From Candidatus Electrothrix yaqonensis (lineage in GTDB: Bacteria; Desulfobacterota; Desulfobulbia; Desulfobulbales; Desulfobulbaceae): 32,000 bases of DNA. The stretch covers positions 2,400,001-2,432,000 of the forward strand of contig CP178758.1 in NCBI GenBank assembly GCA_047651235.1, read 5' to 3'. A program made the translations under genes and the position numbers. Shown piece after piece: positions 21,999 to 26,437 of this stretch. The notes beneath the pieces are model-generated. The model searched no databases. It was given only the letters and a program-made list of their open reading frames with translations, and had not been told where the DNA came from. Position 1 is the stretch's first letter, and every line of letters starts with the position of its first letter.

Positions 21999-22403
21999 AT
22001 GTATAATTCAACATCACAGAATAGAGTATTCCGCAATCAATACAGTGTCTTTTTTCTGTTTGTATCCGTTACGGTGCTCCTGCTGCCGTTGGCATCCGTA
22101 CAGGCGGCAGCGCAAGGACTCAGCGGAGATAAAGAGCATATTCGAATGCAGGAAGGGGCTGGTCTGCTGAGCGAAGAGATTAGCGGTATAGTGAAAAAGA
22201 TGCCCGGAGTCGCCTGGCCTTACGGTATATGGAAGGTGGGGGGCAGAAAGATCATGGTCACAGAGCAGACCGCACTCAAAGGGGAAACATCCAAGGCCAG
22301 ATTCGGCGAGAAGATTTCAGTCACAGGCAGCCTTATTGACGGTGTTTTTACCGCCCATGAGCTTCAGATCGGAGCGCCCGATCCTATGTACGCTGGAGAT
22401 TAG
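21999..22403 (+). CDS. small secreted protein, possibly DUF5666-like beta-barrel
   Basis: A strong SD (gggaggagg) lies before the ATG. An N-terminal hydrophobic signal ends in VQAAAQG. The C-terminal pattern is WKVGGRKIMVTEQT...GEKISVTGSLIDGVFTAHELQI. The family call is tentative. Confidence 0.5.
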   Translation: MYNSTSQNRVFRNQYSVFFLFVSVTVLLLPLASVQAAAQGLSGDKEHIRMQEGAGLLSEEISGIVKKMPGVAWPYGIWKVGGRKIMVTEQTALKGETSKARFGEKISVTGSLIDGVFTAHELQIGAPDPMYAGD

Positions 22404-22782
22404 TTGCAGAATGAGTTCAACCTCAATGGCTTATCCTTCCGCAACAGACCTGATATTCTGACCGGCGGCAGCAATGGCAGGTTCTTCTGTCACAGTGCTC
22501 TCCAGGACGGGAGCCAAAAGTCCGCCGGTCAAAATATCAAAAGGAGGAAAGCAATACCCCGCTGACAGCAGTTCATTCCCCGTCCTTCAAAAGCATCCTT
22601 CCCTTCTGTCTGCACGCGGACTGTATGCAGCACAACGGAACAGAAAATTCGGCAAGATTGTTTCAGAGTTCATGGCGTGAAATCCGGGATCATTCATTTT
22701 GACCGGTCTCCCAGCCTTTTGTGTATTCCTATGAGTTACGCAGCTGTCAAGCGGGCAGCTGAACCATCTTTTTCCAGACACT

Positions 22783-22890
22783 CTCATCGCTCTGCCTGAC
22801 AGCGCCGGTTATTTAGAGATTGTCGTGAATATGGGCAGTACAGGTGACCCTGTTATAGTGACGGCAGGTTCTCTTCATATTCCTGAATAA
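22783..22890 (+). pseudogene. orphan duplicated 3' end of the DUF62 gene
   Basis: ctcatcgctctgcCtgacagcgccggttatTtAgagattgTcgtgaatatgGgcag... aligns to 21626 onward. It translates as LIALPDSAGYLEIVVNMGSTGDPVIVTAG, compared with LIALLDSAGYLEIAVNMNS...GDPVTVTTG in the intact gene. Internal deletions are present, and both copies are followed by ttgagcaga. Confidence 0.65.
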
Positions 22891-22977
22891 ACGGAAAAGT
22901 TTGAGCAGAGCGCAGAACGGGCAACTGTTATGGAACAGGCTGGAGGCCGGGATACGCCATTTTCCGGCAAAAAAATC

Positions 22978-23007
22978 TTGTATCTTTTTTTAGGATTGAC
23001 CTATAAT
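22978..23007 (+). promoter_or_regulatory. candidate sigma70-type promoter for the cytochrome gene
   Basis: ttgtat (22978-22983), an 18-nt spacer, then tataat (23002-23007), about 80 nt upstream of a strong SD (aaaaaggagg) and ATG 23087. This is a pattern match only. Confidence 0.25.
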
Positions 23008-23086
23008 TCTTCTAAACCAAAGCAGGTATAGGAGTAATAAAAAGAAAGGAGTCTGTTGTGTTAATCTTCATGAAAAAGGAGGAACA

Positions 23087-25003
23087 ATGAAACCCAAAGG
23101 TATTGGATTGGTTCTTGCCCTGACAGCCGGGCTGACCATGGCGCTGACCGCAACTTTTGCACAAGCTGCCGACGAACCGGAAATACTTTCCTTTAAGCCG
23201 TCAAATCTGCAATGGGAAAAAACCAAAGCTGACTTTGTCGCCCCGTCCCCGCAGACCTGCGGGGCCTGCCATCCCAAACAGTATGAGGAATGGCAGGGTT
23301 CCATGCACTCGATCGCCTTTCAGGATCCGATCTATCTGGGGGAACTGAATATGGGCCTCAAGGCTGTGGGTAAAGAAATCACCAAACAGTGCGAGGGCTG
23401 TCATACTGCGGCTGCCGTTGTCTCGGGACATACGGAAGAACTTGATTTCAACAACCTGACCGACCTGGCCAAAGCCGGTGTTTCCTGCGATGTCTGCCAT
23501 TCCATCAAGCAGCATCGTCACTGGGAGACCCCGTCCCATGAGCCGGAAAACGGTTCCTATGTTCTTTCTCCGGGCAGAAACGACGACAACGACCCGAGAG
23601 GGTTTGTCCGGACAAAATACGGTCCCTTCCCTCCATATGAGGGCTGCGGCGGCGGTTTTCATGAATGTATTGAATCTCCTCTGCACCTGACAGCAGAACT
23701 CTGTGCCGGATGCCATCATGTGTACCATTGGTCCGCCCATACGCCGTATGAGTTTACCTATGGTGAGTGGAAGAAGAGTCTGTACGCGCAGAACGGTATT
23801 CAGTGCCAGGACTGCCATATGGTGGACATTGAGACCTTCAAGCGTTCTGCTGATGAATTCATCAAACCGAAACGCAGCGACTACCACCATTACTTCAACG
23901 GTGCCAACTTCCTGATGTATTATCTGGGAGAACTGCAGGCCAAAAAAGCCGGTGACGAAAAACTGGCGGCAAACTATCGGAATAAGTATAAGATGGCTGT
24001 GGAGCGTCTCCAGGCGGCAGCTGAGATTGAAATCGACCCGATGTACAACAAGGATGGTAATCTGTATAAGATCAGGGTTCGGGTCCATAACCGGCGGGCC
24101 GGACACGCCCTGCCGACTTCTCTGACTGCTGTCCGCGAAATGTGGCTTGAAGTCAGAATTACTGACAAGAAGACCGGCAAGGTGTTGATCGAGAGCGGGT
24201 ATATCGATAAAAACGGCGAGCTGGACGGCAATACCCACGTCTTCAACTCCGAAGGTATGGACAATGATCAGGTATTCCAGATTGATCCTTGGGACGTAAT
24301 AGCCTTTGCCAAGCATGACCTCATTCCGCCCAAAGGGTATCGTGATATTTTCTACACGATTCTGTATCCGCCGGGAGAAGGCCATGAGCTGGAGGTTCAT
24401 GCCAAACTTCGTTTCCGCCAGGCCAGCCAGTTTATGGCTGAAAAACTGCTGAGCAATGTGCCGGACGGCATTGATCTCACTGAAATGTACGGTATAACCG
24501 AAGTCCCGACTGTCCCTGTAGTTGATATGACCGAGCAGAATGTGACGGTCAAGAGCACAGGTGAGCCGACCAAGCTACCGACAATTGAAGATAAGCTCAA
24601 AAAGGCCAGTTCGCATATACCGAAATCTCCCCCAAAAGACGCATCTCTTTATGAACAGCTCGGCGGAGAAAAGACGGTTGATGTGGCGGTTGCGCTTTTT
24701 TACAAAAAAGTTCTGGCGGACCCACGGGTCAACGGCTTTTTCAAAGGCATTAATATGCAGCGTCAAATGAGGATGCAGAGGGCATTCCTCACCTTTGCCT
24801 TTGGCGGCCCGAATACCTATTCAGGCAGGGATCTGAGAGCAGCCCATGCCGGTGTTGTGGCAAAAGGTTTGAATGATACCCATTTTGATGTTATTCTTGA
24901 ACATCTTGCAGCCAGCCTGAAAGAACTTGGTGCGACGGACGAGATGATTCAGCAGGCAGCTAAGGTGGCCAACAGTGTGCGGAATGAGGTGCTTAATAAG
25001 TAA
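23087..25003 (+). CDS. periplasmic pentahaem cytochrome c fused to a C-terminal group-I truncated haemoglobin domain
   Basis: The signal peptide ends in TFAQA/ADEP. There are five CxxCH motifs (CGACH, CEGCH, CDVCH, CAGCH, CQDCH). The last 119 aa (from 24644) carry trHb hallmarks: QLGG, FY (Tyr B10), GGPNTYSG and AAH (proximal His). Confidence 0.85.
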   Translation: MKPKGIGLVLALTAGLTMALTATFAQAADEPEILSFKPSNLQWEKTKADFVAPSPQTCGACHPKQYEEWQGSMHSIAFQDPIYLGELNMGLKAVGKEITKQCEGCHTAAAVVSGHTEELDFNNLTDLAKAGVSCDVCHSIKQHRHWETPSHEPENGSYVLSPGRNDDNDPRGFVRTKYGPFPPYEGCGGGFHECIESPLHLTAELCAGCHHVYHWSAHTPYEFTYGEWKKSLYAQNGIQCQDCHMVDIETFKRSADEFIKPKRSDYHHYFNGANFLMYYLGELQAKKAGDEKLAANYRNKYKMAVERLQAAAEIEIDPMYNKDGNLYKIRVRVHNRRAGHALPTSLTAVREMWLEVRITDKKTGKVLIESGYIDKNGELDGNTHVFNSEGMDNDQVFQIDPWDVIAFAKHDLIPPKGYRDIFYTILYPPGEGHELEVHAKLRFRQASQFMAEKLLSNVPDGIDLTEMYGITEVPTVPVVDMTEQNVTVKSTGEPTKLPTIEDKLKKASSHIPKSPPKDASLYEQLGGEKTVDVAVALFYKKVLADPRVNGFFKGINMQRQMRMQRAFLTFAFGGPNTYSGRDLRAAHAGVVAKGLNDTHFDVILEHLAASLKELGATDEMIQQAAKVANSVRNEVLNK

Positions 25004-25042
25004 AGGCTGAGAACTTCGTCATTCATTACGCTGCTGTATCCG

Positions 25043-25077
25043 ATCCGGCATTTCCTTTGGGGATGCCGGATTTTTTT
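25043..25077 (+). terminator. Rho-independent terminator of the cytochrome-trHb gene
   Basis: A perfect 9-bp stem (atccggcat 25043-25051, atgccggat 25063-25071) has an 11-nt loop and is followed by a T7 run to 25077. Confidence 0.7.
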
Positions 25078-25173
25078 ATGTTCTTTGCGCGTACACACGG
25101 AAAAAATTCGCGGAAGGAACCGGAGAGTCGGGCAGCATATCAACAGGAACACGAAGAGAAACGAGGTGAAGCA

Positions 25174-25521
25174 ATGAAAAAAATAGTCCTGTTCGCCTTT
25201 CGCGGCGATCCGATGTGCTTTATCCATGTTCTGCACAACAGTCTGGATATGGCCGACAAGGGGATGGAGGGAAAAATTATTCTGGAAGGAAAATCAGTTA
25301 CTCTGGTGCCGGAAATGAGCAAGCCCGATCATTTCCTGCACAAACTCTATACAAAGGTAAACGAGCAGGGGCTGATCATCGGCGCCTGCCGGGTCTGCTC
25401 CAACAAGCTGGGCGTAACCTCGGCCATGACAACAGAAGATATCCCGCTGATCGGCGATATGGCCGGTCATCCGGCAATGTCGGAATATATCCGTAAGGGC
25501 TATTCAGTTATTACGTTCTGA
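25174..25521 (+). CDS. DsrE/DsrF-like family small protein (116 aa)
   Basis: SD gaggtg lies before ATG 25174. The pattern is MKKIVLFAFRGDPMC...EGKIILEG...ACRVCSNKLG...GHPAMSEYIRKGYSVITF, a DsrE-like alpha/beta fold with conserved Cys. The upstream extension from 25057 would overlap the terminator. Confidence 0.6.
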   Translation: MKKIVLFAFRGDPMCFIHVLHNSLDMADKGMEGKIILEGKSVTLVPEMSKPDHFLHKLYTKVNEQGLIIGACRVCSNKLGVTSAMTTEDIPLIGDMAGHPAMSEYIRKGYSVITF

Positions 25522-25627
25522 CGGCGTCTGCTGCCCCGCCCGATCGGGCTGTCCGGGCGGCTGGGATCCCCGGTCCGGAATATTCGGAACATTTTCTGCC
25601 GACCGCCCGGAAAAGAGATGAAAAGAA

Positions 25628-26437
25628 TTACTGGCCCAGCTCGGCGGAACGTCCGGTTGCCGCTTCAACAGCGGTCATGACGGTTCCCCGCAGCCCGGCT
25701 TCTTCCAGCACCTGAAGACCGGTAATGGTTGTTCCGCCCGGTGAGGTAACCCTTCCTTTAAGCACCGCTGCCGGTTCGTTACTTTCCAGCGCAAGTTTTG
25801 CCGAGCCATACAGGGTCTGGGTTGCCAGCTGCTCGGCCACGGGCCTGGGAAGCCCGGCTAGGACGCCGCCGTCGATCATGGCCTCGAGAAAGGTAAAGAC
25901 ATAGCCCGGCCCGGACCCGCTCAGGCCGGTCACCGCATCCAACAGATTTTCCGGGACCTCCACACAGGTTCCCACTGCAGAAAAAATCTGCTGGGCAATC
26001 TCCATGTCCTCCTGCCGGATATTCTGATTGCCGCTCATGGCAGACGCTCCGGCAAGCACCAGGGCCGGGGTGTTCGGCATTACCCGGATGATATGTATGT
26101 CTTCGCCGAGTCCCTGTTCAAGTAAGGGAAGAGGGATGCCAGCGGCAATGGAAATGACAAGGTGCTCTCGGGTCAGGTGAGCCCTGTACTGCTGCAGAAC
26201 CGGCCGGGTGATCTGAGGCTTGACCGCCAGAATAATCACCCTGCTGTCTGCAGCAAGTTCCTCTGCGGTCTCCACGCTGCTGACCTGATAGGTTGCTGCC
26301 AGATACTCGCGACGCCGATTTATTGGCTCAACAACCGTGATATTTTCCCCGGCTGTCCGGCCTGACTCGATCATGCCCCGAATCAGGGCTTCTCCCATCT
26401 GGCCGCCGCCGACCATGCCTATCCGTATGTTCTTCAT
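25628..26437 (-). CDS. proC: pyrroline-5-carboxylate reductase
   Basis: Contains IGMVGGGQMGEALIRG (Rossmann GxGxxG), VMPNTPALV and the C-terminal SPGGTTI block. Confidence 0.9.
   Translation of the reverse strand: MKNIRIGMVGGGQMGEALIRGMIESGRTAGENITVVEPINRRREYLAATYQVSSVETAEELAADSRVIILAVKPQITRPVLQQYRAHLTREHLVISIAAGIPLPLLEQGLGEDIHIIRVMPNTPALVLAGASAMSGNQNIRQEDMEIAQQIFSAVGTCVEVPENLLDAVTGLSGSGPGYVFTFLEAMIDGGVLAGLPRPVAEQLATQTLYGSAKLALESNEPAAVLKGRVTSPGGTTITGLQVLEEAGLRGTVMTAVEAATGRSAELGQ

Follow-up and report, generated by a model that had tools for sequence, protein, structure and literature searches.

The pentahaem cytochrome-truncated haemoglobin fusion of Candidatus Electrothrix yaqonensis: architecture, distribution and predicted role in periplasmic O2 reduction

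How cable bacteria, in the absence of a canonical terminal oxidase, pass their electrons on to O2 has yet to be settled. The leading published candidate for this step is a protein in which a multihaem cytochrome c is fused to a truncated haemoglobin (trHb). We have analysed the gene for such a fusion located at positions 23087-25003 of a 32,000-nt stretch of the Candidatus Electrothrix yaqonensis genome (contig CP178758.1, positions 2,400,001 to 2,432,000; the window hereafter). Later papers (PMC7875522, PMC11976967) credit Kjeldsen et al. 2019 with the 'cytochrome-truncated haemoglobin fusion'. The names lPHC, for the large subtype of the PHC family, and lPHCtX, for the fusion, were introduced by Digel et al. 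2025 (PMC11976967). The combination of domains was described as exclusive to cable bacteria, and the fusion was proposed to be a catalyst of periplasmic O2 reduction which has no membrane anchor and conserves no energy (PMC7875522, PMC11976967). Digel et al. tied lPHC and lPHCtX structurally to ExtKL, Gsu2801 and T. tepidum c552, placed ExtKL/Gsu2801 and a multihaem cytochrome c selenoprotein in one PHC family on structural grounds, and classed lPHC among the cytochromes with a pentacoordinate haem in models; lPHCtX was also detected in proteomes (PMC11976967). According to a preprint of January 2026, the role of the fusion is still an open question (bioRxiv 10.64898/2026.01.20.700514).

The genome of strain YB6 is closed and lacks the CoxACDB and CydBSA complexes (PMC12093952). 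The absence of both complexes makes YB6 a useful test case. Its filaments reduce O2 electrocatalytically with an onset at ~-70 mV vs the saturated calomel electrode and an apparent K'm of 4.5 µM, and this activity was assigned by the authors to a periplasmic truncated haemoglobin (PMC12093952). An apparent O2 reduction rate of 56 s-1 is quoted for immobilised B. subtilis trHb in the January 2026 preprint. The fusion gene is already known: it is annotated in a published genome, its family has a name and the same functional hypothesis has been published. An earlier note on this DNA, made from the sequence alone, had mentioned that such fusions were pointed out as possible oxygen reductases of cable bacteria, and this proposal is indeed found in four sources (PMC7875522, PMC11976967, PMC12093952 and bioRxiv 10.64898/2026.01.20.700514). 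Our reading is that the fusion is a soluble periplasmic redox protein, predicted to be a non-energy-conserving O2 reductase, an electron 'flare' and not an energy-conserving oxidase; we put the probability of this at about 0.5. What is added here is the finding of lPHC in oxidative-stress operons of other anaerobes and the modular shuffling of globin lineages.

Architecture of the fusion protein

The open reading frame (ORF) 23087-25003 on the + strand is an intact coding sequence (CDS) of 638 amino acids plus stop without any internal stop, and its product is 100% identical to P0001, 'multiheme c-type cytochrome [Candidatus Electrothrix sp. YB6]'. At least 13 independent genomes or metagenome-assembled genomes (MAGs), as well as many metagenome proteins, show this architecture in a single frame, and the fusion is accordingly no artefact of assembly. 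The earlier description of a single 638-aa ORF with a signal peptide, five CxxCH sites and a globin was borne out by the intact frame, a regular-expression search, Pfam and inspection of the sequence. Its ~500-aa domain with five CxxCH sites was right as to the haem sites, but the AlphaFold2 (AF2) model divides this part into a haem domain, an Ig-like domain and a linker of ~27 aa. The model, built on a 45-sequence alignment and without cofactors, is of medium quality (pLDDT 74.9, pTM 0.64) and consists of a mostly helical haem domain, an all-beta domain, a low-confidence linker and a confident globin (518-638). The features are as follows:

23076-23082, + strand: Shine-Dalgarno sequence AAGGAGG, 4 nt 5' of the ATG (read from the sequence)
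23087-25003, + strand: CDS, large pentahaem cytochrome with C-terminal truncated haemoglobin (lPHCtX type)
23087-23167, + strand: Sec-type signal peptide, residues 1-27, predicted cleavage AQA/AD (read from the sequence)
23234-24019, + strand: five-haem domain, residues ~50-311 (Pfam, 5ze8 profile and Foldseek matches)
23258-23272, + strand: haem site 1, CGACH, C58-H62 (regular expression; site present in 74/74 homologues)
23390-23404, + strand: haem site 2, CEGCH, C102-H106 (regular expression and alignment)
23486-23500, + strand: haem site 3, CDVCH, C134-H138 (regular expression and alignment)
23702-23716, + strand: haem site 4, CAGCH, C206-H210 (regular expression and alignment)
23804-23818, + strand: haem site 5, CQDCH-M, C240-H244, M245 (regular expression and alignment)
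24020-24556, + strand: Ig-like beta-sandwich domain, residues ~312-490 (AF2 all-beta over 312-489)
24557-24637, + strand: flexible linker, residues ~491-517 (~27 aa), EPTKLPTIEDKLKKASSHIPKSPPKDA (pLDDT <50 at 506-514)
24638-25000, + strand: group I truncated haemoglobin domain, residues 518-638 (Pfam, PDB, Foldseek)
24701-24703, 24764-24766, 24776-24778 and 24845-24847, + strand: codons of the key globin residues Y539, Q560, Q564 and H587, respectively
25042-25080, + strand: intrinsic-terminator-like hairpin and T-run (hairpin at 25042-25072; 14 pairs, 7 of them G-C, loop 3, then TTTTTAT)

The N-terminus MKPKGIGLVLALTAGLTMALTATFAQA, which is followed by ADEP after the cleavage site, shows the n-region, the h-region and the AxA c-region of a signal peptide when read by eye and not by a predictor, and inspection of the same N-terminus revealed neither a twin-Arg motif nor a lipobox Cys. 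This stretch has low confidence in the AF2 model and is, again judged by eye and not by a predictor, the sole visible hydrophobic stretch of the protein. The linker sequence differs from orthologue to orthologue. A 399-aa antisense ORF (23201-24400, - strand) lies wholly inside the cytochrome CDS; since the host CDS has hundreds of homologues, the antisense frame is most likely a non-coding shadow ORF.

The 638-aa protein contains exactly five CxxCH motifs, starting at residues 58, 102, 134, 206 and 240, and the regular-expression search of the same protein found no CxxCK or longer-spaced variant of the haem motif. Exactly five CxxCH motifs are present in all 74 lPHC homologues of our alignment, in which identity falls to 33%. 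Pfam Cytochrome_C554 matches residues 57-139 with 42 bits (cut-off 20.8). A solved relative of the module was reached by two routes. The lPHC family profile matched the T. tepidum pentahaem c552 (5ze8) with E 2.3e-16 in hmmsearch, and the 5ze8 profile match falls into separate stretches covering haems 1-3, haems 4-5 and the H-x-L/M-P-T loop of the beta domain. The Foldseek search of the PDB with the cytochrome part gave the same entry (E 1.7e-11, 478 alignment columns, TM 0.66 normalised to the target).

Six histidines outside the haem motifs (H74, H192, H200, H214, H268 and H340) as well as M245 and M481 are kept among the 74 homologues, and together these residues could ligate all five c-haems. 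In the G-H340-x-L-P-T loop of the Ig-like domain, H340, P343 and T344 are invariant in 74/74 sequences and the loop aligns with 'HAMPT' of 5ze8, which makes H340 a candidate distal haem ligand. The pair C187-x6-C194 (23645-23668, EGCGGGFHEC) was considered as a sixth haem or metal site and rejected, as both cysteines occur in only about half of the family. The pair is invariant among close homologues and is jointly replaced by Ser/Ala and Thr in the wider family; this covariation suggests that it is probably a lineage-specific disulfide.

The comparison with catalytic multihaem families (NrfA, octahaem nitrite reductase, HAO and MccA) gave neither a signature active-site haem nor family-level homology. 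The weak local matches were MccA with E 4e-4 over ~33 residues, NrfA with E 0.07 and HDH with 16.6 bits (cut-off 900). No match to the canonical terminal oxidases (haem-copper, cytochrome bd) was found for the fusion in Pfam or NCBIfam, in agreement with the earlier statement that this is not a canonical terminal oxidase architecture.

The C-terminal domain, according to its alignments, is a complete group I trHb with the TyrB10/GlnE7/GlnE11 pocket which stabilises O2. Pfam Bac_globin matches residues 520-636 with 64.9 bits (cut-off 21) over model positions 1-120 of 121, and the alignment of residues 518-638 with Tetrahymena 3aq5, a group I trHb, runs from end to end (E 3.4e-32, ~50% identity); both results uphold the group I assignment that had been made by eye. 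In Foldseek, the domain reached a TM of 0.86-0.88 to 3aq5, 1dly and 6cii (0.87 to 3aq5). Counted along the alignment with 3aq5, the residue numbering of which was fixed by the mutant entries Y25F, Q46E and Q50E, Y539 corresponds to Tyr25 (B10), Q560 to Gln46 (E7) and Q564 to Gln50 (E11), while H587 falls on the proximal His (F8; AAHAG vs EAHKG). The motifs QLGG, FYKK, GGPNTYSG and RAAHAG are all in the sequence, and the earlier placing of Tyr-B10 in FYKK and of the proximal His in RAAHAG is thus correct. Gly-Gly hinge motifs can be read at 525-527 (LGG) and 572-574 (FGG). His F8 is present in all of the 50 cable-bacterium globin domains aligned, and the distal triad is kept in nearly all of them.

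Distribution and genomic context

The distribution was scanned in one genome per GTDB species. We found 377 relatives of the cytochrome module, in Desulfobulbia and other Thermodesulfobacteriota, Nitrospirota, Desulfuromonadales, Shewanella/Ferrimonas, Planctomycetota and beta- and gammaproteobacterial sulfur oxidisers. Among these 377 relatives, tblastn with the globin domain detected a globin only in Electrothrix/Electronema-type loci. The phylogenetic mapping suggested in the earlier note therefore showed that the fusion is restricted to cable bacteria and that the cytochrome module alone is widespread. The following variants occur in cable bacteria (loci are designated L and a number):

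C-terminal globin: YB6, E. aarhusensis, E. laxa, L004, Electronema KV, E. halotolerans
N- plus C-terminal globins: Electronema PJ, JC, TJ, aureum GS, S01.Bin068
N-terminal globin only: UBA5173, Electronema JM
Two tandem C-terminal globins: L032 (Electrothrix MAG)
lPHC without globin: E. gigas (L007), E. marina (L006), L005

All the variants have a signal peptide of the pattern MK(R)K..GL..L.AG...AFA ahead of the first domain, the members with an N-terminal globin included, so that the globin would be exported in every fusion variant. The C-terminal globin of YB6 is 70-75% identical to the N-terminal globins of Electronema and to stand-alone exported trHbs, and 54-59% identical to the C-terminal globins of Electronema (the globins compared with 24638-25000 of the window were those of L008, L010-L012 and L014-L016). 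In a neighbour-joining tree of the globin domains, the Electronema C-terminal globins form a separate clade with 100% bootstrap support. The identities and this clade point to different globin lineages at the same position in different genera; the support of the deeper nodes is <40%, and the number of fusion events therefore cannot be counted firmly. YB6 has a second group I trHb (P0127), encoded outside the window. This stand-alone protein of 164 aa has its own signal peptide, shares 76% identity with the fused domain and competes with the fusion as a candidate for what the YB6 paper calls the 'periplasmic truncated hemoglobin'. The nearest globins outside cable bacteria have ~122 aa, no signal peptide and ~60% identity.

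The ORFs of the fetched GTDB loci were clustered, and a gene for defence against O2 and reactive oxygen species (ROS) was scored when it was at most four ORFs from lPHC. Such a gene was found in 24 of the 72 lPHC loci, that is in 24/55 of the loci outside cable bacteria and in 0/17 of the cable-bacterium loci, the window included. The genes concerned encode rubrerythrin, flavodiiron protein (FDP), a Fur-family (PerR-like) regulator, an NADH:rubredoxin-oxidoreductase-like (NROR) flavoprotein, desulfoferrodoxin, AhpC/TSA and hemerythrin, and at least five different gene orders link them with lPHC, often as one operon. The first of these orders is Fur, lPHC, FDP, FMN reductase, NROR and nitroreductase on the same strand (L035, L039, L043, L045, L050, L053 and L066, also L036, L051, L052 and L067; Thermodesulfobacteriota, 33-38% identity), often with genes of rubrerythrin, desulfoferrodoxin and AhpC close by in divergent orientation. 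In five loci the Fur gene and lPHC adjoin each other at a distance of 0-36 nt. Four of the six promoter regions read contain, upstream of Fur, a palindrome of the TAATAAT-N-ATTATTA type such as a Fur/PerR box would be expected to have. A second order runs from lPHC through genes of a monohaem cytochrome c, rubrerythrin, an M50/CBS protease, a rubrerythrin-like protein and FMN reductase to FDP (L040, L044, L046, L047 and L076). Hemerythrin adjoins lPHC in L019, L033, L034 and L037, and rubrerythrin does so in L018 and L031. The closest cultured homologue outside cable bacteria, UWK_02193 of Desulfocapsa sulfexigens (57% identity; L081/L082), is followed by AhpC and rubredoxin, and the Desulfuromusa homologue (L083) is preceded by OsmC and a rubrerythrin-domain protein with encapsulin.

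This context represents independent support for an oxygen-related role of the lPHC module. It likewise makes it conceivable that a c-haem, and not the globin, is the site of catalysis. No literature link of PerR or rubrerythrin to the lPHC cytochrome family was found, which is weak negative evidence. The oxidative-stress context also points to tractable organisms for lPHC genetics, such as Desulfocapsa sulfexigens. A different neighbourhood was found in beta- and gammaproteobacterial sulfur oxidisers, where a dihaem cytochrome c adjoins the lPHC homologue (L048, L054, L062, L069, L072 and L075) and the flavoprotein of flavocytochrome c sulfide dehydrogenase, exported by twin-arginine translocation, is also near in L048, L054, L062 and L072. 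A regulator-like protein of ~450 aa adjoins lPHC in L054, L059, L064 and L068 among others.

In the window, the fusion gene is flanked by the housekeeping genes of SAM hydroxide adenosyltransferase, P5C reductase, a GalU-like transferase and PriA. The gene immediately downstream encodes a DsrE-like protein:

25174-25521, + strand: DsrE-like protein of 115 aa, cytoplasmic and with conserved cysteines (sub-threshold match to Pfam DsrE, E 9e-4)

This gene has the same position and strand downstream of lPHC in L001, L002, L005, L006, L007, L013 and L032, although the upstream genes differ, and is the only neighbour conserved across cable bacteria. Homologues of its product are widespread in Desulfobulbaceae under the names 'DsrE family' or 'cytoplasmic protein', and the PDB gave only a marginal match (2fb6, E 0.09). 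The start of the gene is ATG 25174, and the mechanical ORF call from TTG 25057 is too long. The earlier note had described the fusion gene as monocistronic with a strong Shine-Dalgarno sequence and its own terminator. The AAGGAGG sequence before the ATG and the hairpin with its T-run 3' of the stop were both found as described. Monocistronic transcription is plausible, but the DsrE-like gene keeps its position in seven cable-bacterium loci besides the window.

Upstream of the fusion gene, the gap 22404-23086 is an unusually long intergenic region of 680 nt. It follows a 134-aa ORF (21999-22403, + strand) whose N-terminus resembles a signal peptide; neither Pfam nor NCBIfam matched this ORF, and its only match is a partial homologue in L005. 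NCBIfam gave no match for the two small genes neighbouring the fusion gene. The Rfam scan of 22300-25700 found nothing meaningful (one chance match to a long non-coding RNA, E 0.07). The sigma-70 promoter scan gave no more sites than in shuffled sequence, and no promoter is therefore claimed. In other Electrothrix (L001-L007), genes of a histidine phosphatase and a 1439-aa PPDK-like (PEP-utilising) protein lie upstream of lPHC, a synteny which YB6 does not share. In Electronema (L010, L011, L012 and L016), a second, globin-less lPHC paralogue is located directly upstream of the fusion gene and a PAS-GGDEF-EAL (c-di-GMP) protein is encoded directly downstream; this arrangement suggests a possible link to redox or O2 signalling.

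Predicted function and alternatives

If the fusion is an O2 reductase, export of the protein by the Sec pathway would be followed by attachment of its c-haems through the cytochrome c maturation system, and the exported globin would take up haem b non-covalently in the periplasm. The loading of haem b in this compartment, to which the earlier note drew attention, is a legitimate concern but not a prohibitive one, since cytochrome b562 of E. coli is a Sec-exported periplasmic protein with non-covalent haem b. In cells exposed to O2, electrons from the periplasmic conductive fibres or from small cytochromes would enter the five-haem chain, which would take the role of the flavin reductase domain of flavohaemoglobin. 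The tethered globin would dock transiently on the haem chain, stay ferrous and bind O2 at micromolar or lower concentration, and its repeated re-reduction would consume O2 in the periplasm without proton pumping.

Several points weigh against this proposal. Among the enzymatic activities of group I trHbs, it is NO dioxygenation and not the four-electron reduction of O2 that is best established. Globins with a single haem usually give off superoxide or H2O2, and a TyrB10/GlnE7/GlnE11 pocket is typical of tight O2 binding and could limit turnover. The AF2 model gives no fixed haem-globin geometry because the linker is disordered and cofactors were not modelled. The fusion is not obligatory, as E. 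gigas, E. marina and L005 have the cytochrome without a fused globin. No redox- or O2-related gene was found among the neighbours of the YB6 fusion gene, and the literature search found no biochemistry of the fusion protein or of any orthologue. Moreover, YB6 has other candidates for O2 reduction, namely a CydA homologue, periplasmic cytochromes and the stand-alone P0127.

The alternatives and the proposal above are not mutually exclusive. A periplasmic NO dioxygenase, or an NO/nitrite detoxifier, in which the globin haem-O2 turns NO into nitrate and the pentahaem module re-reduces the ferric globin in place of the NAD(P)H-dependent reductases unavailable in the periplasm, is unlikely but deserves attention. 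NO dioxygenation is an established activity of group I trHbs, to which the closest solved relatives of the domain belong (Tetrahymena trHbN, Chlamydomonas THB1/THB4, M. tuberculosis HbN), and FDPs, frequent neighbours of lPHC, are reductases of O2 and/or NO. The nap operon of YB6 and its periplasmic octahaem cytochrome for the dissimilatory reduction of nitrate to ammonium (DNRA) may also release NO in the periplasm (PMC12093952). DNRA, however, is widespread, which leaves the restriction of the fusion to cable bacteria unexplained, and the main flux of O2 reduction in an organism without Cox or Cyd would be unaccounted for. The roles in NO and O2 turnover do not exclude each other, because NO dioxygenation still needs O2. 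Only slightly less probable is that a c-haem of lPHC is the catalytic site, as an O2/peroxide reductase inherited from an oxidative-stress system of anaerobes, and that the globin is an accessory which captures, buffers or senses O2 or scavenges reactive by-products. The globin-less lPHC is widespread in operons with Fur/PerR, FDP, rubrerythrin, superoxide reductase and AhpC, is unfused in some cable bacteria too, and belongs to the cytochromes modelled with a pentacoordinate haem (PMC11976967). The variable number and position of the globin (no globin, one at the N- or the C-terminus, one at each, or two at the C-terminus) are as expected for an accessory module. Nevertheless, the six conserved non-motif histidines suffice for five bis-His haems and leave no open coordination site apparent, there is no CxxCK or other known signature of a catalytic haem, and the similarity to NrfA, MccA and c554 is local only.

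A sulfur-linked role, either the binding or oxidation of sulfide or the transfer to the conductive fibres of electrons which stem from sulfide oxidation in the periplasm (anodic and not cathodic), appears improbable. It would fit the dihaem cytochrome c beside lPHC in the proteobacterial sulfur oxidisers, the sulfide dehydrogenase flavoprotein near it in four loci and the DsrE-like gene conserved downstream in cable bacteria, and some trHbs bind sulfide tightly. T. tepidum c552 was also suggested to act in sulfur metabolism (PMC11976967). The DsrE-like protein, however, has no signal peptide and a sub-threshold DsrE match, and a terminator lies between its gene and the fusion; the O2-stabilising TyrB10/Gln/Gln pocket is conserved, and the closest homologues outside cable bacteria are linked to ROS genes and not to sulfur genes. 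Least probable is a structural or conductive component, that is a cytochrome which polymerises into the periplasmic conductive fibre or decorates it, with an incidental globin. The PHC family is structurally similar to archaeal cytochrome nanowires and iron is associated with the fibres (PMC11976967), but the nanowire similarity was argued for the small sPHC and not for lPHC, the fusion sequence gives no sign of polymerisation, and a tethered and fully conserved globin would have no explanation.

The proposed O2 reductase of cable bacteria may also be combined with the context found in other anaerobes. We tentatively suggest, as a possible but rather doubtful history, that lPHC was ancestrally a PerR-type-regulated periplasmic O2/peroxide reductase in anaerobes of the Desulfobacterota and Nitrospirota, where it served the rubrerythrin/flavodiiron/superoxide-reductase defence as its periplasmic arm, and that a tethered exported trHb made it the bulk respiratory electron outlet of cable bacteria. 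The O2 chemistry may then be that of a c-haem, for which the globin would collect O2 with high affinity. If this were true, lPHC would represent a previously unrecognised, widespread class of periplasmic oxygen/ROS reductases.

Comparison with known systems

The YB6 protein is the variant with a single C-terminal globin and does not differ substantially from the described lPHCtX proteins. Those of E. aarhusensis and E. laxa have the same architecture and are 77-79% identical to it over the cytochrome part (77% in the best tblastn segment). The low-potential pentahaem c552 of T. tepidum (5ze8) shares with the fusion the five CxxCH motifs in the same order, the Ig-like domain that follows them and the H-x-(L/M)-P-T loop, but the identity is 18%, the haem domain is shorter ('small' PHC-like) and there is no globin. 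The similarity to the other relatives is marginal at the sequence level. NCBIfam ExtKL matched the fusion weakly (E 1.3e-5, far below the cut-off) and so did the multihaem cytochrome c selenoprotein (9wt8, E 0.003); unlike the fusion, ExtKL, Gsu2801 and the 9wt8 protein lack a globin and are associated with extracellular electron transfer.

The globin domain has the 2-on-2 fold and the Tyr-B10, Gln-E7, Gln-E11 and His-F8 residues of the group I trHbs 3aq5, Chlamydomonas THB1 and M. tuberculosis HbN. Tetrahymena trHbN, Chlamydomonas THB1 and M. tuberculosis HbN are free-standing proteins and are not known to have a signal peptide, whereas the globin of the fusion is predicted to be exported and is covalently tethered to a multihaem electron-transfer module. 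The fusion thus resembles flavohaemoglobin (Hmp), in which a gas-binding haem b domain is likewise joined to its own electron-input module. The two modules have no homology; the reductase part of Hmp is FAD/NAD(P)H-dependent and cytoplasmic, while its counterpart in the fusion consists of c-haems and would be periplasmic. The globin of Hmp is a full-length 3-on-3 globin, whereas that of the fusion is a 2-on-2 trHb.

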